From UHGV virus genome UHGV-1384413: a stretch of DNA of 64,000 nt. One strand, written 5' to 3'. Under the pieces are notes generated by a model, which saw only the letters and a list, made by a program, of their open reading frames with translations, did no database searches and had not been told where the DNA came from. Below are positions 23,907-51,689 of this stretch, one piece after another. This DNA is from a virus. Every line of letters begins with the position of its first letter. The stretch's first letter is position 1. A program made the translations under genes and the position numbers.

Positions 23907-23916
23907 TGGTAAAATA
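23907..23916 (+). promoter_or_regulatory. extended -10 promoter element TGGTAAAATA
   Basis: Identical 10-mer recurs at 27428, 41570 and 47388 in front of structural operons. Confidence 0.45.
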
Positions 23917-30604: not shown

Positions 30605-30617
30605 CAAACAGCACACA

Positions 30618-30641
30618 GGGGGCTCCGGCCCCCTTTATTTT
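30618..30641 (+). terminator. rho-independent terminator
   Basis: gggggc-tccg-gccccc then TTTATTTT. Confidence 0.7.
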
Positions 30642-30668
30642 ATCGGTGTTGTAAAAACGGCTATTTTA

Positions 30669-30677
30669 TGATACAAT
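30669..30677 (+). promoter_or_regulatory. extended -10 promoter element TGATACAAT
   Basis: Identical 9-mer at 12264; about 35 bp upstream of ATG 30711. Confidence 0.35.
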
Positions 30678-30710
30678 ATTTAGATGGTATCGGAGTGTCC
30701 TGGAGAGGTT

Positions 30711-31595
30711 ATGCCAAGCAATATAGTTGATGAAAAAGACCTGTACAAGCCTCAAGAGGTTAAATCTCCAAAGGCTGAAAAGGCAGAGCAGCAAACTGAA
30801 AGCGATGTAAAGTACACTATGTTTGTCAGCGGTCTTAACTATGGTGGTCGCAATACGGAGATGAAGGGTAAAAACTTTACTAACGATCTTGCCATTATCT
30901 TCGATCAGGTTGAGAACTACTCTTTCAAACATTCTGTTGATAAAACTGGTTTTGCAGTGGAAGATAAATCTACCATGTCAGACCACGCTGTAATTAAAGA
31001 TGGTGTATTTTCTTTTACTGGTAGAGTAAATACATCTCCACATATAATTTATGAGCAAAACTACATTGATAGGAATACTGACTCTAAAAACCCTGCAGCA
31101 TCTATGCGACCAGGCGCTGCATTGGAGGCTTTGACTGAGATTATCAATAAGCGACAGTTGGTTTCTTTGGTTACCGAGGAGAGACTCCTTGAGAACTACA
31201 TCATAACCAGTCTTTCTGCCAACAAGTCTGCTGGTGAAGGCGCTGCAATGGTGTTTGATGTAGAGCTTACAGAGTTCCGCACATTCTACTTGAATAAGGT
31301 TGTTAATGCAACTGTATACAGCAATCCTAAGAAAGTAGGCAAGACCCAGCAAAAAGGCGCTGTCAACGATTGTAAGAATGGCAGTAACGTGGGTAACAAA
31401 AGGGACACAGGAGCATTTGCAGACACTGCATCCACAAATGCCGCAGAAGAGTGGCAGCCATACAAATCTATGATGTGGACAGATGAAAACGGTGTCACCC
31501 AATCTGCTGCGGATTGGTACTATCAGGAGTATGGAAGACCTTCTACCATAGTCCCATCTGAGCAGGGAAACTACAACAAAGTTAACGGAAAATAA
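30711..31595 (+). CDS. tail/baseplate protein
   Basis: 294 aa from ATG 30711 with RBS ggagagg; track start 30684 rejected. Confidence 0.4.
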   Translation: MPSNIVDEKDLYKPQEVKSPKAEKAEQQTESDVKYTMFVSGLNYGGRNTEMKGKNFTNDLAIIFDQVENYSFKHSVDKTGFAVEDKSTMSDHAVIKDGVFSFTGRVNTSPHIIYEQNYIDRNTDSKNPAASMRPGAALEALTEIINKRQLVSLVTEERLLENYIITSLSANKSAGEGAAMVFDVELTEFRTFYLNKVVNATVYSNPKKVGKTQQKGAVNDCKNGSNVGNKRDTGAFADTASTNAAEEWQPYKSMMWTDENGVTQSAADWYYQEYGRPSTIVPSEQGNYNKVNGK

Positions 31596-31606
31596 GGGGG
31601 CGTGCA

Positions 31607-31987
31607 ATGGAGCTTAAAGATTGGTGCATAATCACCTTTGTGTGGGACATTGACGGCTTTCCTGATCAAACCATGCGTGTTGTTTTAGACAATGAAACAT
31701 ATGAAATGCGTATGCAATGGAATGAGAGGGATGAGTCTTGGTGGTTATCCCTTGGTCCGGTAGGTGACAGCCCTTTAGTAACCAGAAAAGTAACAGCTTG
31801 TCAAGATATCTTAGACGGACTGCATTACAGAGACGATTTACCGAAAGGTAGATTGATGGCGCTGTCGTTTAAAGATGATCAATATTGGGGCAGGGTTGGA
31901 AGATACAACCTTGGAGCAAGATCCGAGCTACAGCTTGTATACGGCACCCCAGTTGATCTTTACAAGGAACAGCAAGGGTTAGAATAA
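31607..31987 (+). CDS. baseplate or tail protein
   Basis: 126 aa, coupled to neighbours. Confidence 0.35.
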   Translation: MELKDWCIITFVWDIDGFPDQTMRVVLDNETYEMRMQWNERDESWWLSLGPVGDSPLVTRKVTACQDILDGLHYRDDLPKGRLMALSFKDDQYWGRVGRYNLGARSELQLVYGTPVDLYKEQQGLE

Positions 31988-32985
31988 TGGCAGAGTACAG
32001 ACGTAGAACATGGCGATTATTATTTGGTCGTCCTGTAGAACATGGCGGTAAATCAAAAACCAATATCCCAAAATCTGTTGAAAAGAAAGGAGAGAGTGAT
32101 TCCGGAGTTTATGAGATTAGCTCTGACACTGGTGCTGCCAATATCGAGTTTGACATACAAAAGGACAATACCAAAGAGCCAAACAAAGGCTATGTGACAG
32201 TTTACAACCTGTCTGACGATACAGTTAACTATTTAGATATGCATCAAGCTGATGCTCTTGCAGTTATGTTTGAGGCTGGCTATGATAATGAGAACCAGTT
32301 GATATTCTCCGGAACTGTAGAGTTTGTTGAGGACAGATGGGAAGGTCCGACCAGAAAAACTAAGTTCATCTTTGGGGATGGTACTGAGAACATCATTAAG
32401 TGCCAAAGCACAAGGTCTTATCAGAAAGGCACACCTCTGAACTCTGTGCTTAATGACCTGCTGAAGGATATGAACTTGCCAAAAGGTAGGGTTGTTGGTT
32501 TTGGAAACCAGACTTTACAATACTCTATGGCTTTCTCTGGGAACACTGCAGAGAACCTCCGCAGGTTTGCAAGGCTGACAAACTCAACATTCAGCGTTCA
32601 GGACGGTGCTCTATATTGGACCAAGGTTGGAAAAAGGTTCAAGGACTCTGTATTTGAAATAAGTGCAGAGTCTGGGATGCACGGATCACCCACACCTAAA
32701 AACCCAGAACCTGCTAAAAAACGAAAAGCTAAAGCTGCTGCGAAAGGTGGCACAAGTAAGAAAAAGAAAAACCCGAGAGAGGATGTTGGTCTTACTGTAA
32801 CCACATGTCTTAACGGAGCTATCCTCCCAGAGTCCACCATTTATCTTAAAAGCAGGCAATACACAGGCTTCTATAAGGTGATCACAGTCCATCATAAGGG
32901 CACCATAGAAGGTGGTGATTACACTACAGAGCTTGGCCTTGGGGAAACAATAGGTGGAGTTGTTGACAAAACTGAGGAGGTATAA
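31987..32985 (+). CDS. baseplate hub-region protein (putative)
   Basis: 332 aa; Lys-rich flexible linker PAKKRKAKAAAKGGTSKKKKNPRE; position between tape measure and spike. Confidence 0.4.
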   Translation: MAEYRRRTWRLLFGRPVEHGGKSKTNIPKSVEKKGESDSGVYEISSDTGAANIEFDIQKDNTKEPNKGYVTVYNLSDDTVNYLDMHQADALAVMFEAGYDNENQLIFSGTVEFVEDRWEGPTRKTKFIFGDGTENIIKCQSTRSYQKGTPLNSVLNDLLKDMNLPKGRVVGFGNQTLQYSMAFSGNTAENLRRFARLTNSTFSVQDGALYWTKVGKRFKDSVFEISAESGMHGSPTPKNPEPAKKRKAKAAAKGGTSKKKKNPREDVGLTVTTCLNGAILPESTIYLKSRQYTGFYKVITVHHKGTIEGGDYTTELGLGETIGGVVDKTEEV

Positions 32986-33662
32986 TGGCAATAAATAGGA
33001 AAGATGCTGCTGTAAGATCCTTTATAGAAAAAATAATGAGGGACTACCACACCAGTATCAGGGCCAGAGTTGTCAGTGTAGATTACAGTATCCCTTCTGC
33101 AGCCGTGCAGCCGATAGCTGAAACCACGTTTGATGACGGAGATGTTGAGAGATACCCTCTTATCTATGATGTTCCAATCCAGGTGATGTCTGCAAACAGT
33201 GGGAAGGCAAGGTTAACACTACCAATTAAGGCTGGGGATGTTGTAGGGTTGCAGTTTTCAGAGAGAAATGAAAACAATAACGATGATCAACAAACTCACG
33301 GCCTATTTCCAGGGTGGGCAATAACCTCTGTTCATTCAGACTCGAATGCTTTGCAGATCGATCCTGATAATGTAGAGTTATGGAATGATAGGGTTTATTT
33401 TAAGCTAACACCCTCTGGTGATTTTGAGCTTCAAACACCTGGTGGGACATTACGGTGCGACAGTAGCGGGGAGTTTTCTTTCACCAACGGGGCTGCCAAT
33501 TTACGAGCTGCTGTGGATGGAAATATTAGAATGAATGGTGCCACAATAGACCCATCAGGTAGAATTATAACGGCTGCTGGTGTGGATTTGGACTCATTCT
33601 ATGCAGAATATAAAGGTCATACCCACTCTTGCCCTGATGGCGAGACAAGTGGACCGCACTAA
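32985..33662 (+). CDS. baseplate spike protein (P2 gpV / Mu gp45-like)
   Basis: 225 aa; C-terminal apex motif YKGHTHSCPDGETSGPH resembles the His-containing tip of gpV-type spikes. Confidence 0.6.
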   Translation: MAINRKDAAVRSFIEKIMRDYHTSIRARVVSVDYSIPSAAVQPIAETTFDDGDVERYPLIYDVPIQVMSANSGKARLTLPIKAGDVVGLQFSERNENNNDDQQTHGLFPGWAITSVHSDSNALQIDPDNVELWNDRVYFKLTPSGDFELQTPGGTLRCDSSGEFSFTNGAANLRAAVDGNIRMNGATIDPSGRIITAAGVDLDSFYAEYKGHTHSCPDGETSGPH

Positions 33663-37703: not shown

Positions 37704-40700
37704 ATGGCTGATATTAAAGTTGTCAGAATTGAATCTCTTCCTGCCACTACCGCAGTGACAGAGGATGATTACCTGGTTGTTCAACAACCAGACCTGACCC
37801 GTCGTGTAAAAATTGGCGATGTTGTCCATGTTGATGGGACTGTTTCTCATGTAATCTCCTTTAAGGAAGGTGGTAAGTTAAACGGCCCAATGGATTTTGC
37901 CTACTTCGAAGAGGAAGACCTCTACCTGCGTTGGAAAGGCGAATTTCCACACACTGTCCCTGCACTGTCTTCACCATACTCTGACGGTGGGATTACTGAC
38001 GCTGCATGGATGGTGTATACAGACCCGTCATTAAGGGAGGAGCTGGAGTCTACCATTGGTGCGTCTATGATTATGACAGCCGAAGGGCAGTCTGTCCAGG
38101 ATGTAATGGATGTTACTGTTCAGACAGCCAACGATGCTAAAGCACTTGCACAGCGGGTAGATTTTGGCACAGTGCATACTGTAGGCGATGTTATTCACCT
38201 TGTCAACTTTGTTGGTCCTGCAGTTATTGAAGAGGGAAGAACTACTAACTACCCTTCTGAAGCAGCTGGTGAAAAATTTCTGAACGGTGTGGTATCTCGT
38301 CGTGATACTACAACTGTTGATGGCATTTTCCGTGGCGCTACCTCCGGAGCTATGTATACCATTGCAGTAACCAACGGTGTAGCAACAACAAAAAGAATAG
38401 CACTTCGTGACGAATTTAAACGCCTGGAGGCAAACAACCCAACAAGAACAGTTATCCGTGCCGGAGATGATTTAAACACGGCAGGGTACTTGCAGCTTGA
38501 TGCAACAGGCCGTTGGGGTATGTGGAACCAACAAACAGCCTCGTGGCAACCTCTTGCTATAGAGCAAGGCGGTACAGGAGCCAGAGATGCCGCAGGTGCA
38601 CGCATTAACTTAGGGGCTTTCTATAAGCAACGTGCAGCCCTTGAGGCAAATTTCAATATCAATAACTTAACTGGTAATCAGGATGGTGTATACTACCAGC
38701 CGATGACTGCTAATGCAACTGAGGCAAATGGTTACCCTGCGGGTTCTGGTGCGGGTCACTTGATTGTTTGGCAGAACAATGCTAACGGCGGTACAGGTTG
38801 TCGTCAGGAATACTATCCATTCTCTAACGTAGATGTTTGGTATTTGAGAACCTATCAGGCCAACACAAATCAGTGGACTGCATGGCAGCCGATGGTCAGA
38901 CCTCGTAACGATGATACCTTTAGAGCGCACATCGGTCTCGGGTCTAGAAATTCCCCTACCTTCGGGCACCTTTACCTGTCTCAAAGTTCTGCTGATGTTA
39001 AGTCAGCATCAGGTATTGTTAACGGGGACAAATACAACGCTGACGGTGTCCTTGAGCATGGTTATAGGATCTACTCTGAGGTAAGAAACGACAATAAAGC
39101 TTGGTTGACAATCCACCTGCACAAAGGTGCAAAAGGATCTGAAACTCACAGATATTTAGGTTTCCGCGAAGACGGAGTATTAGACTGCCCTAAATATATG
39201 CAGGTTGGTGATCTGAACGGTCAGCTGGCAAACTGGGGACTTGGAGAATGGATCCGCAGTTCAGGGGCAGAAAGAGGTTTCTGGGGATCTAAGAAAGCCG
39301 CCAAGATGGTCATCTGGGATGGCGGGATGGACGAATCCGGTAACGGCAGTTTGGAATGGGGTGTTTATAACACCCGGAAAGCTAAATGGGAACCACTGCC
39401 GATAGCTTGTGGTGGTACCAGTGCCAGGACTGTAGGGGATGCTCAAGCACAATTCAGAATCCCTCTGGCAGCAGGCGCTAGACCCTATGTAAACCTGCCT
39501 AGAACTGCAGCTATGCAGGACGGTAAGTATTATCCTATTATCGTCAGAACTGACCCCAACTTTGCAGCAACTATCGGGACAGATTTGACCATTGTCACCA
39601 GATCTTCTTCTGGCGGTGACCCAATGAACTGTGCTACACTACAGTGTCACTACAGAACTGGTGGCTGGACAGACAGAGGTGATTCTTTCCAAGGGGTTAT
39701 TAATTTCTACCAAAACGAGAGAGCAATCCTCGGATGTGTATCTCCAACCAGAGGTAAGCAGGAGTATGTTGCATTCTATGTAGAGGCACGTGCATTCCCT
39801 GTTACAGTATATGCTGGCGCTACTGTAATAGAAGTGTCAACCAGGGAGGCTGATTGGCAAGTAGGCAACGTGACAGGTAACCAAGATGGTGTCAAGTTCT
39901 GTGCTCCTCTGGAATCTGCAGATTTGAGTCTTGCAATCAAAGGTGATGATGTAACAAACACCAGACCTCTGGTTGAGTTCAAAGGAACATCAGGTTTCTA
40001 CACTGGTGGTGGAACTATGTGGCACTACCTGGGGACTCCTGAACGCTATGCAGTGATGAGCAAAACGAACATGCCTAAAGTCGAGCTGTGGGCAGACGGT
40101 CTTGACTATTTGTGCTACGGCAGTCCTAGAAAGGCATTATTCTCTAACGCGGGATTCCAGTGTGCATCTGACGGAACAGAGGATCTAACTAACGGCACGT
40201 TTACCTCTAAATGTGGTAATGGTGCTGGCCTTAAAGGCCAAGCAGAGTTCAGGTCTACTCCAGAAGCTGGTCAAGTTATTGTTCGAGATGTTGTGGGAAC
40301 AGCTCATAGATTCTACAACTTCAACAAAGATGGTACTTTCTCAGCCCCAGGTGGTTTTGTATGTCATACTGGTGGAGACTGGAACAACCAGTTCGGGCCT
40401 AATAACCCGTCAAAAATAATGGCTGGCAACGTCAACGGACCAGAAGGTTCGATGGTTGTTGGTGGACTGTCTGTGGCGTTTTCTGGAAACTATGCTTTCC
40501 AAATGGCTGGTCGCCTTGATCAGTTATACACCAGATCTATTGAGGGTGGTAACCACAGGGCGTGGAACAAAGTTATTCAGCACCGTGGTCAAGGTCTGGG
40601 GACAGAAGACCTTAATGACTACGATGGTAGCCGTGAAGGTTTCTATCACCAAGGTTCAAACGCTGACGCACTTGTAATAGATCGCCACTACCCTGCTCCA

Positions 40701-41510
40701 TACGCTGGTACACTGCTTGTTTACAAAAACACAGCTAACAGACCTCAAGGTTGTGTGCAGGAATATATCACCTATTTTGGTGACAGATATACTCGTGCTG
40801 GTAACTACGTTGGCGATGTCTTTACTTGGGAAGAATGGAGACACGATGCTGGTAAGGGCATTCAGTTAAGACCTAATTACACTTTCGGTGAAACCAGTAA
40901 TCAACTGGAAATTCATGTCGGTTCTAATAGTCTTTCTAGCAACGCCGATAACTTACCCACCAATACAGGTAGAATGTTCTATTGGGGAAACACAGCCAGG
41001 AAGAATGTGCTTGAGTTTCAGATAAACGACAACGCTGCGTCTGCTGGTTGGGTATTCCACTGTGGTGCTAGGTCAGACGAGGCTAAGTCAAGATATTTTG
41101 CTGTCAACGGTGTAGTAGAGTGCACCACTGTAAGCCAGAGCTCTGATAGAGACCTGAAGGATAACATAGAGGTTATTCCTAACGCGCTGGAAGCTATCCG
41201 TAAGATGAAGGGCTATACCTACACTTTAAAAGAGAATGGTATGCCTCACGCGGGGGTAATTGCTCAAGAGGTCATGGAAGCATTGCCAGAGGCAGTAGGG
41301 TCTTTCGTGAAAAGGAAGGAAATCCCAAACCCTGATCAAGATGGGACTCCTTTGATAACAGAAGAAAGGTTCTATAACGTTGACTACGCAGCTGTAACAG
41401 GCTTGCTTGTCCAGGTTTGCAGGGAACAGGACGATAAAATAACCGCCCTTGAGGAGCAGGTTAAAAAATTGACAGAGGTTGTTACTGGGTTGCAAGAGAA
41501 ACTGAAGTAA
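37704..41510 (+). CDS. long tail fibre with C-terminal intramolecular chaperone domain (peptidase S74-like)
   Basis: 1268 aa; two GG[TS]GA..AR.NLG-type hinge motifs (IEQGGTGARDAAGARINLG, IACGGTSARTVGDAQAQF); C-terminus SDRDLKDNIEVIPNALEAIRKMKGYTY plus coiled coil, typical of auto-cleaving chaperone domains. Confidence 0.65.
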   Translation: MADIKVVRIESLPATTAVTEDDYLVVQQPDLTRRVKIGDVVHVDGTVSHVISFKEGGKLNGPMDFAYFEEEDLYLRWKGEFPHTVPALSSPYSDGGITDAAWMVYTDPSLREELESTIGASMIMTAEGQSVQDVMDVTVQTANDAKALAQRVDFGTVHTVGDVIHLVNFVGPAVIEEGRTTNYPSEAAGEKFLNGVVSRRDTTTVDGIFRGATSGAMYTIAVTNGVATTKRIALRDEFKRLEANNPTRTVIRAGDDLNTAGYLQLDATGRWGMWNQQTASWQPLAIEQGGTGARDAAGARINLGAFYKQRAALEANFNINNLTGNQDGVYYQPMTANATEANGYPAGSGAGHLIVWQNNANGGTGCRQEYYPFSNVDVWYLRTYQANTNQWTAWQPMVRPRNDDTFRAHIGLGSRNSPTFGHLYLSQSSADVKSASGIVNGDKYNADGVLEHGYRIYSEVRNDNKAWLTIHLHKGAKGSETHRYLGFREDGVLDCPKYMQVGDLNGQLANWGLGEWIRSSGAERGFWGSKKAAKMVIWDGGMDESGNGSLEWGVYNTRKAKWEPLPIACGGTSARTVGDAQAQFRIPLAAGARPYVNLPRTAAMQDGKYYPIIVRTDPNFAATIGTDLTIVTRSSSGGDPMNCATLQCHYRTGGWTDRGDSFQGVINFYQNERAILGCVSPTRGKQEYVAFYVEARAFPVTVYAGATVIEVSTREADWQVGNVTGNQDGVKFCAPLESADLSLAIKGDDVTNTRPLVEFKGTSGFYTGGGTMWHYLGTPERYAVMSKTNMPKVELWADGLDYLCYGSPRKALFSNAGFQCASDGTEDLTNGTFTSKCGNGAGLKGQAEFRSTPEAGQVIVRDVVGTAHRFYNFNKDGTFSAPGGFVCHTGGDWNNQFGPNNPSKIMAGNVNGPEGSMVVGGLSVAFSGNYAFQMAGRLDQLYTRSIEGGNHRAWNKVIQHRGQGLGTEDLNDYDGSREGFYHQGSNADALVIDRHYPAPYAGTLLVYKNTANRPQGCVQEYITYFGDRYTRAGNYVGDVFTWEEWRHDAGKGIQLRPNYTFGETSNQLEIHVGSNSLSSNADNLPTNTGRMFYWGNTARKNVLEFQINDNAASAGWVFHCGARSDEAKSRYFAVNGVVECTTVSQSSDRDLKDNIEVIPNALEAIRKMKGYTYTLKENGMPHAGVIAQEVMEALPEAVGSFVKRKEIPNPDQDGTPLITEERFYNVDYAAVTGLLVQVCREQDDKITALEEQVKKLTEVVTGLQEKLK

Positions 41511-41515
41511 CTGTT

Positions 41516-41547
41516 TTGCCCTCGCTTCGGCGGGGGCTTTTTGTTTG
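41516..41547 (+). terminator. rho-independent terminator
   Basis: gccctcgc-ttcg-gcgggggc then TTTTTG. Confidence 0.75.
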
Positions 41548-41569: not shown

Positions 41570-41579
41570 TGGTAAAATA
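41570..41579 (+). promoter_or_regulatory. extended -10 promoter element TGGTAAAATA
   Basis: Same 10-mer as at 23907, 27428 and 47388; 30 bp upstream of ATG 41610. Confidence 0.45.
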
Positions 41580-41609: not shown

Positions 41610-42200
41610 ATGTTTTTATGGGAAAGGCCTAGATATCTTCCAGATATTAGATTGGAGTTGCTGGCAGATATTGTTACGTTTAAAAGCCCGTTTACAGGTA
41701 AGACGCAAAAAGTAACCTATGCCACGCCCAACTGGAAAGGAACTTTGACGGTTTCCAATATAAGTGAGTCCCAGCTATTGGAGCTTAAAAGTTTTGTTGA
41801 TCAGGTGTATAAAGATGGGAACATCTTTCTTATTAAAACGTACGGTCACTCAGTAACAGCTAATGAGCCAATCGCCCTTGGGCCTACTGGTAACGACGAT
41901 TTTTTGAAGACGGTCGGATGGGAGCCAAACAGAGACATAGCCAGAGCTGGGGATAAAATATCTGTCAATGATGAATTGAAAGTGGTAACAGCTCCAGTGC
42001 GCAGCGATGGTGTTGGGTCTGCTGTCATAAGCATATCCCCAAGACTTAGAAAACCTATTGCTGCAGGGGACACTATGAAGATAATAACTCAATCCCCAAA
42101 GGGTAGGTTTCATATCAGAGATATTTATAAAATTAAGCAAAAAGTCGATGCTATGCAAAAAGGTGATAATATAGTTATCAACTTCTTTGAGGATTTCTAA
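41610..42200 (+). CDS. tail-tip-associated protein
   Basis: 196 aa; first of three coupled genes preceding the J-like fibre gene. Confidence 0.35.
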   Translation: MFLWERPRYLPDIRLELLADIVTFKSPFTGKTQKVTYATPNWKGTLTVSNISESQLLELKSFVDQVYKDGNIFLIKTYGHSVTANEPIALGPTGNDDFLKTVGWEPNRDIARAGDKISVNDELKVVTAPVRSDGVGSAVISISPRLRKPIAAGDTMKIITQSPKGRFHIRDIYKIKQKVDAMQKGDNIVINFFEDF

Positions 42201-42753
42201 GATGATTAGAGCGCCATTAGATAATTTATTTCTTGAAAAGCTGGAGCTTGATAGTGTTGAGATCTTAATTGCTGCAAAGCTAGAGCTACCAACAGGGACT
42301 GTCAGGGTGTGCTCAGGAACTGGTGTTGTGGTGATTGAGGGGCAACATTTTATAGGGATAGGTGGATCAGCAACATTGACTGCTGTGTCTGAGAAAGATG
42401 CCACCAACTTCGGATCTGTGGTAGCAACATTGAACGGATTTGATCCCAAGTATGTAGGTGATCTGCTGAAGACAGAGTATTCGGGTTGTCGTGCCACGTT
42501 GTATATCACAGCTATGGAGAATGGTTTACCTGTTACAACCAATGGCTTGTTTGACGGCCTTATAACAGACATGGCTATTCAGACAGGGGAGAATAGTGCT
42601 TTGTCCATATCCATATCTTCCATCTTCAACAGCTGGTTAAGAGGTTTTCCTTATCGATACACAGAGGAGAGCCATAGCTCAAGAAACGATAATGACAGAT
42701 TTTTTAAATATGTGGATCAGGTGGCAAGCCGCCCGATCATTTGGGAGGTTTAA
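42187..42753 (+). CDS. tail-tip-associated protein
   Basis: 188 aa; overlaps both neighbours. Confidence 0.35.
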   Translation: MRISKMIRAPLDNLFLEKLELDSVEILIAAKLELPTGTVRVCSGTGVVVIEGQHFIGIGGSATLTAVSEKDATNFGSVVATLNGFDPKYVGDLLKTEYSGCRATLYITAMENGLPVTTNGLFDGLITDMAIQTGENSALSISISSIFNSWLRGFPYRYTEESHSSRNDNDRFFKYVDQVASRPIIWEV

Positions 42754-43178
42754 TGAGCACACACCCTCGTTTAGTGGACTGGCAAGAAAGATTGTGGAAA
42801 GTGTTTGACGAAGAAGCCACCGTCCCGTTTGAATGGGGATTCCACGATTGCTGCACTTTTGCGGCTAAGTGTGTTGATGCCCAATACGGAACAGATTTTC
42901 TTTCTAACTTTGAAGGAACGTATAAAACAGAGTTGGAAAGCAAGAGATGGTGCATGCTTCGTTTCAAAACCACACATCTGCCTACTATTTTTGATCTCTT
43001 TTTGACTCGACTGGATACTCCTAAACAGGTTCAGCGTGGGGATATTGTTATTTTCGAAGGTCTGAACGGGCTCACCGCTGGTGTGTTCTGGAACAACCAG
43101 ATTTGGGCGAAAGGTGATAAAGGGATCTTTATGTTTGACATGAAAGATTCTATCGTTGTTGATGTCTGGAGGTATTAA
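42741..43178 (+). CDS. tail-tip-associated protein (possible gpK-like Cys-containing domain)
   Basis: 145 aa; WGFHDCCTF Cys-containing motif; stop overlaps the J-like start. Confidence 0.3.
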   Translation: MGGLMSTHPRLVDWQERLWKVFDEEATVPFEWGFHDCCTFAAKCVDAQYGTDFLSNFEGTYKTELESKRWCMLRFKTTHLPTIFDLFLTRLDTPKQVQRGDIVIFEGLNGLTAGVFWNNQIWAKGDKGIFMFDMKDSIVVDVWRY

Positions 43179-46100
43179 TGCCAATTGCAATGATTGATAA
43201 CATCGTTGCTTCTGCAAGATCTTCGAGCTATGACTGGAACGCATCCAAGGCAGCTCTGGCTGACAGCCTGAACACTGTTACCACCAGAACCTTGGATAAG
43301 ATTTTCGAAGGCAACAAATCTTACAGAAGTCAGCAAGATAGACAAAAGCTCCTCAGATCTTCTGCTGCACCTTGCTCTGTAGTGTATGGGAAGACACGCA
43401 CATCTGGATTGCTTGCGTTTTTGGAGCAGGACAGGGACAGAACCCTTCATTGTGCTATTGTTCTTGCCAATCACCCTCTGGAAGGTGTAGAAGATATACT
43501 TATCGACGGTAATCCTATTTCCTCATATGGAGATTTGGTATCTTGGGAGCTACATAACGACAGAAAAACCTCTGATCCTTTCATGGGCACACACTGCCCT
43601 TCGTGGTCACCAGACATGATAGGTAGAGGGATCAGTTGGCTACGTGCCAGCTTTAAGTTTGACCCTAACAAGTTTCCTTTTGGGTTGCCGAACGTTACAC
43701 TCGTCAAAGTTGGTAAAAAATGTTATGATCCTCGTATCAGTAAAGAGGTGTATACCAATAACGCTGCCTTGGTGATTCTGGACTATCTAAGAACGTACCT
43801 TAAATGTCCTGACGAAACCATCAACTGGGAGTCCTTCAAGGAGGCTGCCAACATATGCGACGAGGCTGTAAGAAACGCAGACGGAACCAGTGAGCGTCGT
43901 TACACCATTAATGGAGAGTTCGACATGGATGAAGCACCAGCAAGCATTATGGCAGAAATGCTGAAAGCTTGTGGTGCAGATCTTAGCTATGTAGCTGGCA
44001 AATATGGTCTGCTGGTAGGTGCATATTATGGCCCGGCAACAATGACACTGAGTGAGGACTGTGTTTGCGGTGAGGTTAAGATCTATCCGGAAGCCTCTTT
44101 CGACAAGAGATCGAACACAATAACTGGCAGATTTACTAGTCCAACCAAAGGGTATTCTGAAACAGATTTTCCATCAGTGTTTGTCCCAGAGTGGATAGAG
44201 AAGGATGGAGAAAGAAAGATAATCGATATAGATTATCGCTTTGTTACCAGCCCTTATCAAGCTCAGCGTGTTTCTGCAATCTTCTTAAGACGTGCCCGAG
44301 CTGGCAGGATTATTGAAGTAACCTGCAATATGCGAGGTTTTAAATTTAAACCTGGGCGTTACGTTACGATGAATCTTCCAAGTATTGGTATAGTGGGCCA
44401 AGAAATGAGGGTTCTTGAGTGGGAGTTCACCAAAAAGGGAGGTGTCAAGGTAAAACTTCGTCAAGATGCCAAAGAGTGGAACGATGCCACAGGACAACTT
44501 CCGGATTCTGGAGATGTAGATATTCCGATATCTCCATCCGGCGTAGCTCAACCGCAAAACTTCAGATACTCTGTTCTTCAAGCTGGAGAAGTAACTCACG
44601 GTGTTTTGGCTTGGGACAACGTTGGAACTTATGCTCAAAATATTGTGCAGGTAAGAAAGAACGGAGAGATTATTTGGACAGCACAAACAGTAGAGCAGTT
44701 TGTCCGTGTAGAAGGATTGACCAAAGGGTCATACACAGCAACCGTGGTTGCAACATCTTATAAAGGTGGTGTATCTCCAGAAGCGTACTGCGAGTTTAAC
44801 ATTCAGGCACCTGAAGCTCCGGTTTCTGTAGAAGTTAAGCAGGGATACTTTGCTATCACCTTGATTCCGCACAGCAGGGACTTAGCAAGTGTAAGCACCC
44901 AGTATGACTTTTGGACATCTGGTATGACAAGGTTGCCAGACACAAGTGATGCAACCGTTACTTCAAAAGCCACTCGTATGGGTGTTGGTTCAACTTGGAC
45001 ATCTGAAGGTCTGCAGAACGATAAGATCTATTATTGGTATATTCGAACCACAAACGCTTTTGGTAGTTCTCAGTTTATAGAATGCGCTGCACGCTGCTAC
45101 ACCTCTATTGAAGATTTGATGCCTCAGATAGATGCTGAATTTAAAAAGACAGAAACTTATAAAGAGTTGATGAGCACTTTAGATTCCTCTATCGAAGAGG
45201 TTGAAAATCGTGTCACAGAACTTAACAGGTACATGGATGGTAGAGTTGACGAGGCTTTTGACCACATGGAAGGTGAGTTCTCTAGAGTAGACAAGCTGTA
45301 TGCTCAGTTGGGGGATAGGGTTGGAATATTCATCCAAGAAACCCACGACAACTTCCAGGACGTTAATGGAACGCTTACCACTCTAGACCAGAAACTGGTA
45401 GCCACTCAGAACAAGTTTGCAGATGATCTTTCTAAAGAAAGTGGTAAGCTGACTTCTCTAATACAGACCACTAACAAAGCTACAACCGATCTGTTAAATC
45501 AGAAAACTGAAGCTTTGGACGAGAAGATTTTTTCAACAAGGGGTGAATTGGAAGATGCTTTGGCACAGGAAAGCTCTGAGCTGAACTCTCTGATTGTTTC
45601 AACCAATAAAACGACTACAGATCTCCTTAATCGGAAAACCGAGGCTTTAGACAATAAGCTGACAGCAACGAAAGGTGAGTTGACCAACAACCTGCAGAAT
45701 GAGAGTGCTAAACTATCATCCTTAATTGAGTCAACCAACAAATCCACCACTGATCTTCTTAATAAGAAAACAGAGGCGTTGGATGAAAAACTGGTTGCTG
45801 CACAGGGCGAGTTGACTGAGCAGATCGGAGATGTTGAAAAAGGCTATCTGGCTGGTGATAAGAGCCTAGAGGGCAAGTTGAATACTCAAAGATCTGAGTT
45901 GGATGCGAGCATTCTGAGCACTAACCAGGCCACTGTGGACTTGCTGAACAGAACTTCTGAGACTCTTGACCAGAAGATTAGCCAGACCAACGCCACAGTG
46001 TCCAAAAACTACACCACGCTTGATGGTAAGATAAACACCGCCAAGTCTGATCTTAATACGTTGATTTCTACCACCAACAAGGCCACAACTGACCTATTGA

Positions 46101-47323
46101 ATCAGAAAACGGCAGCTTTGACTGAGCAGTTAACCACTGCTAAAGGGCAGATTACAACCAACACCAATAACATTACCGGGTTGGATAATAAGCTGACTCA
46201 GACTAAGAAAGAATTGTCTGCGAATATTTCTGAAACTAATAAGTCTACTGTTGACCTTATTAATGGCACAGCGTCAGCTATTCGTCAAGAACTTGCTGTT
46301 GCTAAGCAGGAGATTATTGATGATGTTGGAGATGTGACCGAACTCAGAGCTGCAGTGGCTACAACATCTAAGGCTGTGACCGACTTAGAGGGCAAAGTAA
46401 ATGCTCAATGGGGCACAAAAATACAGGTAGACTCTGCAGGGAATAAGTATGTGGCAGGTATCCAGTTAGGCATGGAAGGCTCTGGAGGCCAAGTTCAGTC
46501 ATATTTCATGGTTAGCGCAAACAACTTTGCGGTATACAACCCAGGCAATGGAACAGCAACCCTTGCTTTCGCAATCAAGAACAACCAAGCGTTCTTGAAA
46601 GACGCTTTTATAGAGAACGGCACGATCTCTTCTGCCAAGATCGCGCAAGAAATTTCGTCAAACAACTACGATGGCAACGGGTACCACAAATACGGTTGGT
46701 ATATTAACAAGAACGGGCACGCCCAGTTTATGGATGTGTGGGTGAAAGGTAACATCAACGCTAGTGCAGGTAACTTCACAGGGGCAGTTAACGCCACCAG
46801 TGGTACCTTCCGTGGAGATGTTTATGCCAACAATGGTAGCTTTAGAGGGACCATAGATGCAACAGGAGGTACATTCCGTGGACGTGTAGAAGCTTCCGTT
46901 ATCCGTGCTAACCAGTTCGAAGGTGCGATTGTTGCACACAGGACTTACGGAGATTGTGCTCCAGTATATAACTCGCAGCAAAGGGTTTGCCGTTGGAGGT
47001 GGAGATATGTGGACAACGTGCAAGGCCAAGGTAAGAACGTAACATTCTTCTTTAAACTGAATGGTACTCTTGCCAGCTCCCAACTGAATGCATGGATAGC
47101 TGGTCATCAGATCCTTGCTGGCAAGAAGTATTTTAACGACAACAACGGCATGTGTGCGGTAGGGATAACAGGTCTGGGTGAACAAACTATAGACATTGTT
47201 ATCGAGATTTACACACCGTGGTCAACGTCCAGCGTGACAGGTGTCACAATCTCCTGTCCCACTGTGATCGTTAGTCGTTCTAACTCAAGCTTCCAGGGAC
47301 CTTGGAACGAGTCTCACGACTAA
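43178..47323 (+). CDS. central tail fibre, lambda gpJ-like, with inserted coiled-coil repeat array
   Basis: 1381 aa; QGYFAITLIPH..YYWYIRTTNAFGSSQFIECAA and C-terminal KYVAGIQLGMEG..NAFLKDAFIENG parallel lambda J (PGYFQITATPH..YYFYIRSVN; HYVAGIGLSMED) as recalled from memory; about six tandem ~40-aa repeats STNK[AS]TTDLLN.KTEALD.KL. Confidence 0.65.
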   Translation: MPIAMIDNIVASARSSSYDWNASKAALADSLNTVTTRTLDKIFEGNKSYRSQQDRQKLLRSSAAPCSVVYGKTRTSGLLAFLEQDRDRTLHCAIVLANHPLEGVEDILIDGNPISSYGDLVSWELHNDRKTSDPFMGTHCPSWSPDMIGRGISWLRASFKFDPNKFPFGLPNVTLVKVGKKCYDPRISKEVYTNNAALVILDYLRTYLKCPDETINWESFKEAANICDEAVRNADGTSERRYTINGEFDMDEAPASIMAEMLKACGADLSYVAGKYGLLVGAYYGPATMTLSEDCVCGEVKIYPEASFDKRSNTITGRFTSPTKGYSETDFPSVFVPEWIEKDGERKIIDIDYRFVTSPYQAQRVSAIFLRRARAGRIIEVTCNMRGFKFKPGRYVTMNLPSIGIVGQEMRVLEWEFTKKGGVKVKLRQDAKEWNDATGQLPDSGDVDIPISPSGVAQPQNFRYSVLQAGEVTHGVLAWDNVGTYAQNIVQVRKNGEIIWTAQTVEQFVRVEGLTKGSYTATVVATSYKGGVSPEAYCEFNIQAPEAPVSVEVKQGYFAITLIPHSRDLASVSTQYDFWTSGMTRLPDTSDATVTSKATRMGVGSTWTSEGLQNDKIYYWYIRTTNAFGSSQFIECAARCYTSIEDLMPQIDAEFKKTETYKELMSTLDSSIEEVENRVTELNRYMDGRVDEAFDHMEGEFSRVDKLYAQLGDRVGIFIQETHDNFQDVNGTLTTLDQKLVATQNKFADDLSKESGKLTSLIQTTNKATTDLLNQKTEALDEKIFSTRGELEDALAQESSELNSLIVSTNKTTTDLLNRKTEALDNKLTATKGELTNNLQNESAKLSSLIESTNKSTTDLLNKKTEALDEKLVAAQGELTEQIGDVEKGYLAGDKSLEGKLNTQRSELDASILSTNQATVDLLNRTSETLDQKISQTNATVSKNYTTLDGKINTAKSDLNTLISTTNKATTDLLNQKTAALTEQLTTAKGQITTNTNNITGLDNKLTQTKKELSANISETNKSTVDLINGTASAIRQELAVAKQEIIDDVGDVTELRAAVATTSKAVTDLEGKVNAQWGTKIQVDSAGNKYVAGIQLGMEGSGGQVQSYFMVSANNFAVYNPGNGTATLAFAIKNNQAFLKDAFIENGTISSAKIAQEISSNNYDGNGYHKYGWYINKNGHAQFMDVWVKGNINASAGNFTGAVNATSGTFRGDVYANNGSFRGTIDATGGTFRGRVEASVIRANQFEGAIVAHRTYGDCAPVYNSQQRVCRWRWRYVDNVQGQGKNVTFFFKLNGTLASSQLNAWIAGHQILAGKKYFNDNNGMCAVGITGLGEQTIDIVIEIYTPWSTSSVTGVTISCPTVIVSRSNSSFQGPWNESHD

Positions 47324-47329
47324 CTTTTA

Positions 47330-47356
47330 AAGCCCCGCTTCGGCGGGGTTTATTTT
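47330..47356 (+). terminator. rho-independent terminator
   Basis: agccccgc-ttcg-gcggggtt then TATTTTTAT. Confidence 0.75.
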
Positions 47357-47366
47357 TATGCTCAGA

Positions 47367-47397
47367 TTGACTATTGTTACAAAATTTGGTAAAATAC
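47367..47397 (+). promoter_or_regulatory. sigma70 promoter with extended -10
   Basis: TTGACT 47367-47372, 17 bp, TGGTAAAATA 47388-47397. Confidence 0.55.
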
Positions 47398-48930: not shown

Positions 48931-49617
48931 ATGGCAGAGATTAAGTCGGATGTCAACCACATCCACACTCTGCCAGATTTTGTTCAGGGAGGTCTTGATT
49001 ACCTGCCTGGGGATTTTCTGGCTGAGAAGGTTAATTTAGTCACATTCTTAACCGTGTACCTTAAAAGGTTGGAGAATGTTGATAAGATGCTGGTAGGTTT
49101 GGCTGAAGGAAGATTGCTTAACAATGCCAGCGGAAGATACCTTGATGAAGTTGGTAATCAACTTGGTATTCTTAGGAATGGGCTTTCAGATGCTGATTTT
49201 CGTGCTACGCTGATTATTCAGCAGGCAGCATCATCAAGAGGTGGTACTCGCGAAGATGTCATCTCCACCTTACGGCAGTTGTTCGGAAGAGACAATTTCG
49301 ATACGTGGAAAGGTGACAACTTCAGATTTGACATAAATATTAGAAAAACTTGCTTCGACATATTACAGTCCATCGATCAAATCTTAGATATGCTACCATT
49401 ACCTTGTCATTTGCGTCTTACAGAGTCGCAAGGGCAAGCTTTTGGTTTTGAAGGGGACTCTACAGCTCTCGGCTTCGGGTCGGTGTGGGAAGAAAACCAG
49501 TTCGGTGTCGGTGGGTTGGCTACTTTGTTATATGTTCCTGACGTAAGACCTGATTGGGATACCACAACTATTTATTGTGAAAGTATTACAGTAAACGCAA
49601 CTAGACAGGAGGGTTAA
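48931..49617 (+). CDS. baseplate protein, P2 gpI / Mu gp48-like
   Basis: 228 aa immediately after the J-like gene; ..LDYLPGDFLAE.. N-terminal pattern and gene order match tail protein I. Confidence 0.45.
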   Translation: MAEIKSDVNHIHTLPDFVQGGLDYLPGDFLAEKVNLVTFLTVYLKRLENVDKMLVGLAEGRLLNNASGRYLDEVGNQLGILRNGLSDADFRATLIIQQAASSRGGTREDVISTLRQLFGRDNFDTWKGDNFRFDINIRKTCFDILQSIDQILDMLPLPCHLRLTESQGQAFGFEGDSTALGFGSVWEENQFGVGGLATLLYVPDVRPDWDTTTIYCESITVNATRQEG

Positions 49618-51689
49618 TGGCAACAGCTGTTTTTAAACCTTACCGTGATTACTCTACAATGGCTGCACGGTTTCATTACCGCACAGTTCAGGATACTGCA
49701 GTTCCGGGTAGGGATTATGATCATGTTGAGGGCGATGTAACTATCCCGGTTGGGGCAACCAGTATTGAGATCCCTGTAGAAATTGTTGACAAATTGCCAA
49801 ACAGGTTGCCAAGAAGCTTCTTTATGGAGTTTTCATCAAACTCCCAAGGGGTTATGATTGGAACACAAAGAGCGAAATGTACAATAGTTTCAGATGAGAA
49901 TCTTGACAGAATATCTTGGGATACCGTTGAGGAGAGAATGTTTCACCCAAGATACTGGGTTACAACCACACAGCAGACTGAAAGCACCTGTATTGTTGCG
50001 GATAATAACTGCTGTATTAACCGTTTAGTGTCAAGAACATATGGAGGCATGGCTGGGTGCATTTGGGAAACAGTTGACAAGTATGACCATTTCGGCATTG
50101 GATTTGATGATCACTACGAGATGAGAAACACCAAGCTTTGGTTCAGAATGTCAATAACCAATGCCAGCAACTTCTCCACCCCTGAAAAGATGATTATGAC
50201 TGTAGACCTTGTTGATGGTACAATCATCTATGTTCCTTTAGCTCAATATGCTGTCAGCATCTCAGAGGATAAGAATGTTGCAGAAATTCATATTGATTTC
50301 GAGGACTGCGTCGGGATGGACCAGAACAACAACATGATGGGTGTTGATCCTCGGCAGGTGAGAAGGATTTTAATACCGCTTATGCCTAAAGATTGGGTAG
50401 GTAATAGCACAGACCCGAGAACGGAAAATGTAGAATGTGAGTTGCGTCTAGATCTTCTTCAGCCAGACACAGGCTGGAAAATGATGCAACTTAACAATAT
50501 TCAGGTGAAAGAACACGATGTTGGGATCTGCACAGCATATGACGATATGTGGAACGTATCCCCTTTAAGGGTGTTGAGTAATATCAAGCGTCTGGGCTAT
50601 ACAGGAACCATAAACCATTATGTTGGTATGAGCCATTATTATGACTACACATGGTCAGGAACCCAATGGTCTATAAACAAAACAGGAGCTCTAAACGCTG
50701 CAGCTTATAAATGGCATGATGATTTTATGTACAATGCCAAACGGCATGACTTCGACGTTATGCAGTCTGTAAGCTTTGAGCTTTATAGCGATGCCTGTCC
50801 GTTGGAATGGACCCAGAGAGACTGGAACGATAACTATGCTAAAACAGGCTATACGCCTTGCAGTTACCTCCTGTCTCCAACCATTGAAGAGGGCATGAAT
50901 TTCCTTACTGCAGTATTTAAGAATTTTGCATCAGCCGCTATAAGAAACAACCTGCCAGTGATTATGCAGATTGGTGAACCGTGGTGGTGGTTCAATACCG
51001 ATACCCGTAAGCCTTGTATTTATGACTACCCTACAAAGCAGGCGTTTTATGATGAGACTGGTGAATATGCACTAGACATTGGGACTATTGACGATCCTAA
51101 AACTGGCGGTGTTTATGACAAGTATGTAGCATTTTGTCGTGGTAAGCTTGGCGCTCGTATTGCAGCTATTTCAAAGGCAATAAAAGCACACGCTGCATCA
51201 GCTCAGATGACAGCTTTACTGTTTTTCCCCACTATTATGGAAACCGAGCTTACGCAAAAACTGAACCTTGCTGACCAATATAAAAAGGAAGCAGGTGCTC
51301 TTGATTTCTTCTGCACTGAGTGCTACGATTGGGTGATGCAGGGAGGTATTGAAAAGGCAAAAGAGTCTGTAAACATACCTATCGTTAAGTTAGGTTGGAA
51401 ACCGTCTGAAATACAATACCTTGCAGGGTTCGTTCCTAGCAAAGAGCTTGCTCCGGTATATGGCTACGACCCAACCAGGAATTACCAAGAATTTTTATGG
51501 AGATGTATTTGCGGAAACATGGCAACCATAGAGTATAGATACCCTGAGGTAAAACAGTATGTGTGGGCATACCCGCAAGTAATGTCTGACAGCATCACTG
51601 TTACCGCCAGAGATTCTACTGTTCTGCATATGGGGCAGGTTGCTCTGAAAGGGTATGTAGAAGATGTTGTTCCGCCAGACTTCTCATAA
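49617..51689 (+). CDS. tail fibre or spike with N-terminal Calx-beta-like domain
   Basis: 690 aa; GRDYDHVEGDVTIPVGATSIEIPVEIVD fits the Calx-beta pattern; Trp-rich C-terminal domain (IGEPWWWFN) of unknown, possibly enzymatic, function. Confidence 0.4.
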   Translation: MATAVFKPYRDYSTMAARFHYRTVQDTAVPGRDYDHVEGDVTIPVGATSIEIPVEIVDKLPNRLPRSFFMEFSSNSQGVMIGTQRAKCTIVSDENLDRISWDTVEERMFHPRYWVTTTQQTESTCIVADNNCCINRLVSRTYGGMAGCIWETVDKYDHFGIGFDDHYEMRNTKLWFRMSITNASNFSTPEKMIMTVDLVDGTIIYVPLAQYAVSISEDKNVAEIHIDFEDCVGMDQNNNMMGVDPRQVRRILIPLMPKDWVGNSTDPRTENVECELRLDLLQPDTGWKMMQLNNIQVKEHDVGICTAYDDMWNVSPLRVLSNIKRLGYTGTINHYVGMSHYYDYTWSGTQWSINKTGALNAAAYKWHDDFMYNAKRHDFDVMQSVSFELYSDACPLEWTQRDWNDNYAKTGYTPCSYLLSPTIEEGMNFLTAVFKNFASAAIRNNLPVIMQIGEPWWWFNTDTRKPCIYDYPTKQAFYDETGEYALDIGTIDDPKTGGVYDKYVAFCRGKLGARIAAISKAIKAHAASAQMTALLFFPTIMETELTQKLNLADQYKKEAGALDFFCTECYDWVMQGGIEKAKESVNIPIVKLGWKPSEIQYLAGFVPSKELAPVYGYDPTRNYQEFLWRCICGNMATIEYRYPEVKQYVWAYPQVMSDSITVTARDSTVLHMGQVALKGYVEDVVPPDFS

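Follow-up and report, generated by a model that had tools for sequence, protein, structure and literature searches.

The 64,000-nucleotide stretch of DNA analysed here (the window) comes from a Vequintavirus, an rV5-like E. coli myovirus, and encodes at 43178–47323 on the plus strand a 1381-residue protein resembling the lambda tail fibre protein J; the open reading frame (ORF) lies exactly where an earlier reading made from the letters alone (the sequence-only reading) had placed it. We conclude that this J-like protein is probably the fibre subunit of a siphovirus-type four-gene tail-tip cassette, which serves as an accessory, host-specific fibre on a phage with a contractile tail. The cassette, coding for a Dit-like, a hub-like, a DUF6950 and the J-like protein, would be a transcription unit of its own in a phage that has a complete central hub and spike. 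Three J-like chains would assemble into a parallel coiled coil of about 63 nm, anchored at the periphery of the baseplate through hub, hub-like and Dit-like parts, and this shaft would keep the conserved distal domain, the presumed site of binding, at a distance from the baseplate. Such a fibre could give the phage a further means of receptor binding, required on some hosts and not on others, and as each 44-residue unit of the shaft would add about 6.6 nm, the number of units would set the reach of the tip.

The J-like gene is universal within Vequintavirus and is matched by 117 GenBank phage records, among them phage NHEP1, to whose 'central tail fiber J' it has 98% DNA identity. It is the orthologue of rV5 gp37 and of bas54_0031, and represents a six-unit allele, the longest among the alleles compared. 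Many GenBank records label the Vequintavirus gene 'central tail fiber J', and the rV5 record has stated since its deposit that gp37–gp40 are similar to tail proteins of the siphovirus PY54. Eighteen of the matched records (MG0656xx, e.g. MG065644 and MG065674) are titled 'Campylobacter phage' with C. jejuni as host; over the J-like gene they are 94–98% identical to E. coli Vequintavirus genomes, and the host label looks doubtful.

The four-gene cassette and its requirement on some hosts

The genes of the cassette and the signals around them are as follows.

41518–41537, plus strand: intrinsic terminator at the 5' boundary of the cassette, ending the gp41-like fibre gene (8-bp stem with 7 GC pairs, T run; Murica has an annotated terminator at this position)
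41570–41578, plus strand: TGGTAAAAT, extended −10-like motif ahead of the cassette, a putative promoter element
41610–42200, plus strand: Dit-like (distal tail protein) gene, 196 residues; orthologue of rV5 gp40 and bas54_0028; phrog_1302, E=2e-50
42202–42753, plus strand: hub-like tail-tip protein gene, 183 residues from ATG 42202; orthologue of rV5 gp39 and bas54_0029; phrog_2048 'tail protein', E=1e-67
42753–43178, plus strand: DUF6950 protein gene, 141 residues from ATG 42753 (the ORF opens at TTG 42741); PF22262, E=6e-34
43178–47323, plus strand: J-like fibre gene, 1381 residues; six-unit allele of rV5 gp37 / bas54_0031
47330–47351, plus strand: intrinsic terminator at the 3' end of the cassette (likewise annotated at the corresponding position in Murica)
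47367–47395, plus strand: promoter-like site TTGACT-17-TGGTAAAAT, after the closing terminator and ahead of the wedge genes

The four genes abut or overlap and lie as one unit between two strong terminators; the ORF of the hub-like gene opens at TTG 42187, and its start codon, ATG 42202, was checked. Five copies of the 9-mer TGGTAAAAT are present in the window (at 23907, 27428, 41570, 47387 and 58827), and those at 41570 and 47387 each follow closely on a terminator and precede a gene block. To judge from the sequence, it is probably a phage promoter −10 element.

The nearest relatives of the J-like protein outside Vequintavirus are 'J-like tail tip proteins' of Queuovirinae siphoviruses. In the siphovirus ChristophMerian the Dit-like gene comes first after the tape measure gene and is followed by the hub-like, DUF6950 and J genes; the three small proteins of the window are 31%, 37% and 47% identical to these tip proteins and are encoded in the identical order. 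The DUF6950 protein carries the label 'cell wall hydrolase' in BASEL records and is the positional equivalent of the g14 peptidase of the gene transfer agent (GTA) RcGTA. We found no Pfam or PDB sequence match for the Dit-like protein; a PDB sequence search with all three small proteins gave only chance-level matches, and NCBIfam gave nothing.

The window also encodes a tape measure, a Dit-like tube initiator, a plug, a hub and an iron-tipped-type spike (28268–33662). The tape measure gene ends about 11 kb upstream of the cassette, which comes after two fibre genes and fills a variable slot for fibre genes, with the sheath-initiator block on one side and the wedge genes on the other. None of the four cassette proteins is encoded in the tail loci of representatives of Mydovirus, Seunavirus, Certrevirus and Justusliebigvirus, in which a wedge gene served as positive control, and the cassette is absent from the tail locus of the phi92-like phage PaulScherrer; in these phages the slot holds other fibre genes, or nothing (Certrevirus). 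Since PaulScherrer lacks the cassette, the cryo-electron microscopy (cryo-EM) of phi92, with its unassigned fibre II, was set aside as a guide to fibre position. Several 127-kb Vibrio phages that weakly match the J hub were considered as further myovirus examples and proved to be T5-like siphoviruses. Among the contractile-tail relatives examined, the cassette is found only in Vequintavirus, and in this respect the combination of a J-type fibre with gp25-like and gpV-like baseplate genes is unusual, as the sequence-only reading had it; within Vequintavirus, however, it is universal, and the similarity to PY54 has long stood in the rV5 record. The direction of transfer was presumably from siphovirus to myovirus, because the module is widespread as the sole tail tip in siphoviruses.

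Published HIDEN-SEQ data for Bas54 (bioRxiv 10.1101/2025.11.20.689424) bear directly on the role of the cassette. On K-12, the fractions of TA sites with insertions are 0.96, 0.80, 0.94 and 0.81 for bas54_0028–0031 respectively (180 of 221 sites hit in bas54_0031, which is non-essential on this host), whereas the gp25-like, wedge, hub and spike genes and the genes flanking the cassette are essential. On the clinical isolate CFE311, insertions in the four cassette genes fall to about zero (log2 fold changes of −6.4, −5.1, −5.3 and −6.4, adjusted p ~0), and those in the neighbouring fibre genes bas54_0026/0027 rise, which argues that the J cassette is independent of those fibres. On isolate CFE303, bas54_0031 insertions stay abundant; here we used the raw counts instead of the sheet 'resampling_K-12_vs_CFE303' (supplementary file 9, sheets Data S6/S7), which duplicates 'K-12_vs_CFE311' (311 wig file). 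The identical conditional phenotype of all four genes indicates that the cassette acts as one unit, and the overlapping genes of one predicted transcription unit agree with four proteins that work together. The cassette thus behaves like a device for an alternative mode of adsorption, which the phage needs on certain hosts.

A further property sets the protein apart from its siphovirus homologues:

43178–43318, plus strand: polar N-terminal segment, residues 1–47, in place of the hydrophobic segment of 'iris/penetration' type in siphovirus J proteins (from hydropathy)

Five siphovirus homologues start with about 40 hydrophobic, Gly/Ala-rich residues (maximum 19-residue hydropathy 1.7–2.3, with 1–4 charged residues in the first 45), whereas residues 1–47 of the window protein reach only 0.31 and include 9 charged residues. 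The Vequintavirus protein retains the first few residues (MP.A.I) and is polar thereafter, and the window protein has no hydrophobic N-terminal plug or penetration segment of the kind seen in GTA- and Queuovirinae-type J proteins. In the RcGTA megatron, residues 1–46 form an iris that plugs the tail channel, and their insertion into the outer membrane has been proposed (PMC7296036). We equate the siphovirus segment with this iris by position and character, not by alignment; on that analogy its loss fits a protein that no longer ends a DNA conduit. The loss is a detail that we did not find in the literature examined.

Both the sequence-only reading and the many GenBank labels make the protein a central fibre, in which case a J trimer would sit, as in lambda, on the tail axis below the tube and gate the exit of DNA. 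The full J architecture, including a hub region, suits such a position, and the low abundance in virions by mass spectrometry would fit a single trimer per particle. We nevertheless consider a central position extremely improbable. The phage encodes a tape measure of its own, together with a tube initiator, plug, hub and iron-tipped-type spike that are essential in Bas54, and the cassette is in the variable fibre slot, away from the tape measure gene; the four cassette genes are dispensable on K-12, where hub, spike and wedge genes are not; and the hydrophobic channel-plug segment has been lost. Moreover, five to six thin fibres per particle have been described for rV5. Assignment to the class of central tail fibres or tail-tip hubs was accordingly rejected: the gene is not adjacent to the tape measure gene, does not encode the only hub, is not essential on K-12 in the published data, and specifies no hydrophobic plug.

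Purified rV5 virions yielded gp37 peptides, and electron microscopy occasionally showed thin 70-nm fibres; the 48-nm shaft estimated below for the rV5 allele, together with tip domains, would be of the order of 70 nm. It might instead be proposed that the cassette is not a stable part of the virion, that its products form a free tail-tip-like particle or act within the cell, and that the requirement on CFE311 does not concern adsorption. The very low spectral counts in virions, the 'cell wall hydrolase' label of the DUF6950 protein, and the fact that the J-like fibre is not placed in the cryo-EM maps as the text of that study presents them could be taken in this sense. However, all four proteins are homologous to structural tail-tip proteins, gp37 peptides were recovered from purified particles, and the defect in a pooled library was not rescued in trans, as expected for a function carried by the virion. 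We think a non-virion role very unlikely.

J-type domains, repeat units and the predicted helical shaft

The J-like protein is divided into the following regions, of which the shaft and its units form a single block between J-type domains.

43319–44647, plus strand: hub (baseplate-hub-type) region, residues 48–490; ChristophMerian J alignment, T5 pb3 match, 99% conserved among Vequintavirus alleles
44654–45133, plus strand: two J-type immunoglobulin/fibronectin type III (Ig/FNIII) domains, residues 493–652; PF24421, PF24489, lambda J 666–838
45158–46414, plus strand: predicted proline-free alpha-helical shaft with hendecad periodicity, residues 661–1079; AlphaFold2 (AF2), periodicity, gp26 match at E=0.003
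45431–45826, plus strand: three exact tandem 44-residue units, residues 752–883; the rV5/MaxBurger allele lacks units 1 and 2
45842–45859, plus strand: GYLAGD, possible hinge or kink, residues 889–894; sole AF2 break in the shaft helix
45881–46327, plus strand: three diverged 44-residue units, residues 902–945, 953–996 and 1007–1050; unit hidden Markov model (HMM)
46352–46774, plus strand: J 'tail tip' domain (DUF1983), residues 1059–1199; PF09327, ChristophMerian J 64%, lambda J 837–990
46769–47320, plus strand: four GxFxG beta-helix-type repeats, then a Cys-containing distal domain, residues 1198–1381; presumed receptor-binding end

Pfam identifies Ig_J_second (PF24489) at residues 547–652 (E=3.4e-30, above threshold) and Phage_Tail_Tip/DUF1983 (PF09327) at residues 1059–1199 (E=6.8e-39), with Ig_J (PF24421) at residues 493–545 scoring just below its 29-bit cut-off (23.9 bits, E=4.7e-5); the PHROG match is phrog_31 'central tail fiber J' (E=5e-161). 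Over residues 48–496 the protein is 50–58% identical to Queuovirinae J proteins, and its hub region matches T5 pb3 residues 526–752 (E=2e-4) and has weak tblastn links to GTA-type proteins; Pfam Phage-tail_3 was not found in the protein at E<0.01. An equivalog-level match to lambda gpJ was likewise not obtained, NCBIfam lambda_TipJ scoring 146 bits against a cut-off of 1950. By domain content the protein is a J-family member, with an N-terminal hub region, Ig/FNIII domains, and a tail-tip domain with a beta-helical fibre.

Lambda J (PDB 8iyk) aligns in two blocks, residues 666–838 with residues 497–671 of the window protein, and residues 837–990, including GxxxG-type repeats, with residues 1053–1217. 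As these blocks fall at separated positions in the window protein, its residues 672–1052 (about 380) are extra at a single junction of lambda J. ChristophMerian J (879 residues) gives the same picture, with 55% identity over residues 48–713 of the window protein, 64% over residues 1066–1197 (ChristophMerian J 718–846), and about 10 residues in place of residues 714–1065 (352 residues); siphovirus J proteins have some 10–30 residues where the window protein carries its shaft. Profile searches and alignments thus uphold what the sequence-only reading had proposed, namely a lambda J-like middle and C-terminal region, and they also place a repeat array between these J-like parts that both lambda J and ChristophMerian J lack.

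The distal 184 residues are present at full length only in Vequintavirus, the first 45 or so being common to siphovirus J proteins. Only chance-level matches were obtained in a PDB sequence search with this domain, and an AF2 model of residues 1050–1381 (pLDDT 42, all-beta) was unusable, so that no fold search was made from it. A non-significant resemblance of residues 1264–1298 (window 46967–47071) to the TonB C-terminal domain (E=0.34) is probably due to chance.

The repeat unit of the shaft is 44 residues (132 nt) long. Three units are exactly tandem (residues 752–795, 796–839 and 840–883) with 27–29 of 44 residues identical, and three further, diverged units at approximately residues 902–945, 953–996 and 1007–1050 are recognised by the unit HMM (3.6e-9, 3.7e-14 and 1.7e-5), with unit-start spacings of 62, 51 and 54 residues. 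The BLOSUM autocorrelation at offset 44 is 0.87, compared with −0.45 ± 0.12 in 1000 shuffles (z=10.7), in which the highest value at any offset was at most 0.18. About six consecutive repeats of some 40 residues had been proposed at roughly nt 45400–46330; the six units are real and span nt 45431–46327, although the period is 44 and only three of them are exactly tandem. In DNA the copies are 61–72% identical, and a DNA repeat search recovers four 92-nt copies in the gene; Tandem Repeats Finder returned nothing relevant on the gene because the DNA copies are too diverged. The tandem units have about 62% DNA identity, with synonymous and non-synonymous codon changes equally many, and the array is therefore old.

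Hydrophobic residues recur with a period of 3.64–3.68 residues (spectral peak) over the full shaft as well as within each of its thirds, corresponding to a hendecad (11/3) pattern, and one unit comprises four hendecads with hydrophobic 'a' positions every 11 residues (7, 18, 29 and 40). A canonical heptad coiled coil, with its periodicity of 3.5, was rejected, and the description of the repeats as heptad-rich in the sequence-only reading has to be replaced by a hendecad one. The AF2 models, single-sequence monomer predictions of moderate confidence for the shaft, show residues 661–1079 as an almost continuous helix (661–891 and 896–1079, pLDDT ~67–76); they were run on single sequences because the homologue search was saturated by near-identical 1279-residue alleles. 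There is no proline in these 419 residues, and the sole predicted break (residues 892–895) lies within GYLAGD. The shaft also weakly matches the coiled coil of the P22-type tail needle gp26 (PDB 4lin, E=0.003), which, with the 11/3 periodicity, lends indirect support to a three-stranded parallel coiled coil. A long helical extension is the most likely structure of the shaft on this modelling, with a predicted trimeric coiled coil as its most likely form; the modelled helix, the lack of proline and the presence of an F2-pyocin shaft at the same position favour the earlier suggestion that the repeats lengthen the fibre. In keeping with this, a Vequintavirinae fibre modelled with RBPseg, perhaps the same protein, has a central-fibre-like N-terminus, a large coiled coil and a C-terminal beta-helix.

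An alternative is that the shaft serves chiefly for docking, after the pattern of the F2 pyocin, with trimers of other fibres bound at kinks or units, so that the number of units would determine valency rather than reach. The single predicted break at GYLAGD and the conserved Gly in four of the six units could mark such positions, and Vequintavirus encodes about nine fibre proteins, of which only three were seen at the baseplate. However, the equivalent Gly in the gp26 match lies inside the coiled-coil repeat region with no obvious break, and GYLAGD, present in the two-, four- and six-unit alleles of O157 typing phage 14 (TP14), rV5, MaxBurger and the window, is missing from the three-unit alleles of FFH2, Murica and LL12. 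The J cassette is also essential on CFE311 while insertions in bas54_0026/0027 are tolerated or enriched there. We consider a shaft devoted mainly to docking unlikely.

Variation of shaft length among alleles

To compare alleles we counted units with an HMM built from the three tandem units of the window. The window protein (1381 residues) has six, rV5 and MaxBurger (1279 residues) four, FFH2, LL12 and Murica (1199 residues) three, and TP14 (1174 residues) two; ChristophMerian J, the only siphovirus J protein scanned, has none. The units are thus universal in the orthologue group and, on this sequence sampling, not in the J family, which bears on the possibility, raised in the sequence-only reading, that they are a universal feature of the family. 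Taking 0.15 nm per residue, the helical part would measure about 63, 48, 36 and 32 nm for six, four, three and two units. When 1.84 billion cluster representatives were searched with the repeat region, only two proteins fell below E=1e-10, both Vequintavirus-type J proteins, and matches in 50,697 phage records were confined to Vequintavirus genomes. The six-unit form is a minority, 13 of 115 GenBank records matching its shaft at ≥95% identity. J-like proteins with even longer shafts exist elsewhere, as shown by P0129, a 2158-residue metagenomic protein with a Phage-tail_3 (J-hub) domain and about 800 residues of coiled coil of unrelated repeat sequence.

Outside the shaft the alleles are nearly invariant, with identities to the window protein of 99% in the hub, 93–99% in the tail-tip domain and 95–99.5% in the distal 184 residues. 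Shaft identities are 54–79%, and shaft lengths range from 161 to 368 residues by uniform boundaries. In the sequences compared, the variation of the gene is therefore in the shaft and not in the tip. The window shaft exceeds that of MaxBurger by exactly two units (88 residues) plus 14 residues. We rejected an in-register deletion between units 1 and 3 as the origin of the rV5 allele, whose single unit is closest to unit 3 (72% DNA identity) and shows no chimeric pattern.

These differences in repeat number could have arisen neutrally, through recombination in a repetitive spacer whose structure tolerates changes, with no effect on host range. Coiled coils tolerate in-register insertions and deletions, the differences observed being 88 residues (two units) plus 14; a mosaic shaft between near-identical flanks is a signature of recombination; and the units are old and diverged. 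On the other hand, the BASEL study named this gene among just three fibre genes that vary while the rest of the locus is conserved (PMC8594841), variation on the shaft with a conserved presumed binding tip is unexpected for drift alone, and four discrete length classes persist across 115 genomes. Neutrality seems to us possible rather than probable. A more elaborate version of the accessory-fibre reading is that the cassette forms a free-standing siphovirus-type tip complex (Dit ring, hub and J trimer) that has lost its DNA-channel function and sits peripherally on the contractile baseplate as a switchable second adsorption device; the hendecad units would be a modular ruler, and possibly docking sites, and recombination among alleles of two to six units would tune the reach of the tip through the capsule or O-antigen layers that different hosts carry. 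We put this forward tentatively and with considerable doubt.

Several observations weigh against the view of the cassette as an accessory, host-specific fibre whose reach depends on its shaft. The functional weight given to shaft length is inferred, and as the tandem units are old, the differences in copy number are not recent adaptive events. The proposed trimer goes beyond the AF2 model, which is a monomer-only, single-sequence one of moderate confidence, and the binding role of the distal domain, which has neither a PDB sequence relative nor a usable AF2 model, is presumed. The HIDEN-SEQ data are from a preprint with a duplicated supplement sheet and concern a four-unit allele. Mass spectrometric detection of gp37 in rV5 is weak (4 peptides, 5 spectra, 4.2% coverage), and the main text of the rV5 report does not name gp38–40 among the detected proteins. 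Cryo-EM of Bas49 and Bas54 resolves three fibres near the baseplate, none of which is assigned to the J-like protein in the text of the paper (PMC12143355).

No N-terminal anchor sequence common to the J-like protein and the other fibre genes of the window was found. The gp41-like fibre preceding the cassette (37704–41510, plus strand, 1268 residues) has a Tail_spike_N domain and a Peptidase_S74 chaperone, and its last 176 residues are 50% identical to the C-terminus of the ChristophMerian lateral tail fibre, making it a second fibre part in common with the Nonagvirus siphovirus group. Beyond the cassette, a 690-residue protein (49617–51689, plus strand) combines a Pfam 'non-contractile tail sheath protein' TIM-barrel (E=1e-79), an N-domain and Calx-beta; its orthologue bas54_0034 is called essential, unlike most other fibre genes (bioRxiv 10.1101/2025.11.20.689424). 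Over the window as a whole, GC skew changes sign at about 9–10 kb and about 62 kb, consistent with switches in transcription direction between early and structural blocks.

Comparison with known systems

Published work already covers the protein family, its resemblance to J and its role as an accessory fibre for particular hosts, and the classification is unchanged, the J-like protein being an annotated member of a known family. Our additions are incremental: the 44-residue hendecad unit, its polymorphism from two to six copies, the restriction of differences between alleles to the shaft, the synteny of the four genes with those of Queuovirinae, the terminators on both sides of the cassette and the loss of the N-terminal plug segment. 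What the sequence-only reading observed is confirmed, and its interpretation is supported in part. Vequintavirus phages are used in biocontrol and therapy for their broad host range, and the assignment of genes to fibres is still unsettled. If gp37–gp40 form a single unit of siphovirus origin that is needed for some hosts only, varies in shaft length and not in tip, and has shed its plug segment, this fibre problem becomes directly testable; the cassette would also be a clear example of a whole tail-tip module that moved from non-contractile to contractile tails and changed its role.

Within Vequintavirus, the rV5 gp37 / MaxBurger allele occupies the same locus in the same four-gene cassette and is 97–99.5% identical to the window protein in the hub, Ig, tail-tip and distal domains; the window shaft is longer by 102 residues (the two units and 14 residues), and its first part has diverged. 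The Nonagvirus protein (ChristophMerian bas19_0019) shares the four-gene synteny and the hub, Ig and tail-tip similarity given above, but its module comes directly after the tape measure gene and forms the sole tail tip, and the J protein has a hydrophobic N-terminus, the short junction in place of the 352-residue stretch, and no distal 184-residue domain. Lambda gpJ (PDB 8iyk), an essential central hub and fibre, aligns in its Ig/FNIII domains, short helical connector, tail-tip domain and the start of its beta-helical fibre; it gives no N-terminal phmmer alignment and has no long shaft.

The order of RcGTA g12 (distal tail protein), g13 (hub), g14 (150-residue peptidase) and g15 (megatron) is that of the cassette, as is the size class of the small proteins, and the megatron, like the window protein, joins hub-type and fibre-binding parts in one large protein (PMC7296036). 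The megatron differs in the channel-plugging iris at residues 1–46, where the window protein is polar, and has no long coiled coil. P22-type gp26 (PDB 4lin) is a trimeric coiled-coil fibre with repeats of the form TNKA.T.LN ... TTA.G.I; its N-terminus and tip are unrelated, and the similarity is weak and may be convergent.

The closest structural resemblance is to the central fibre of F2-type pyocins (PDB 25vf; PMC13455828), a J homologue solved with a three-stranded alpha-helical shaft between its FNIII domains and lower fibre. Residues 965–1180 of the window protein align with pyocin residues 981–1184, and in both proteins the helix lies between FNIII and tail-tip domains. In the pyocin this shaft is far shorter and no 44-residue array is described for it; it stands on the axis of a non-contractile tail and carries side fibres at a Gly kink, whereas the window shaft is much longer and built of repeats.

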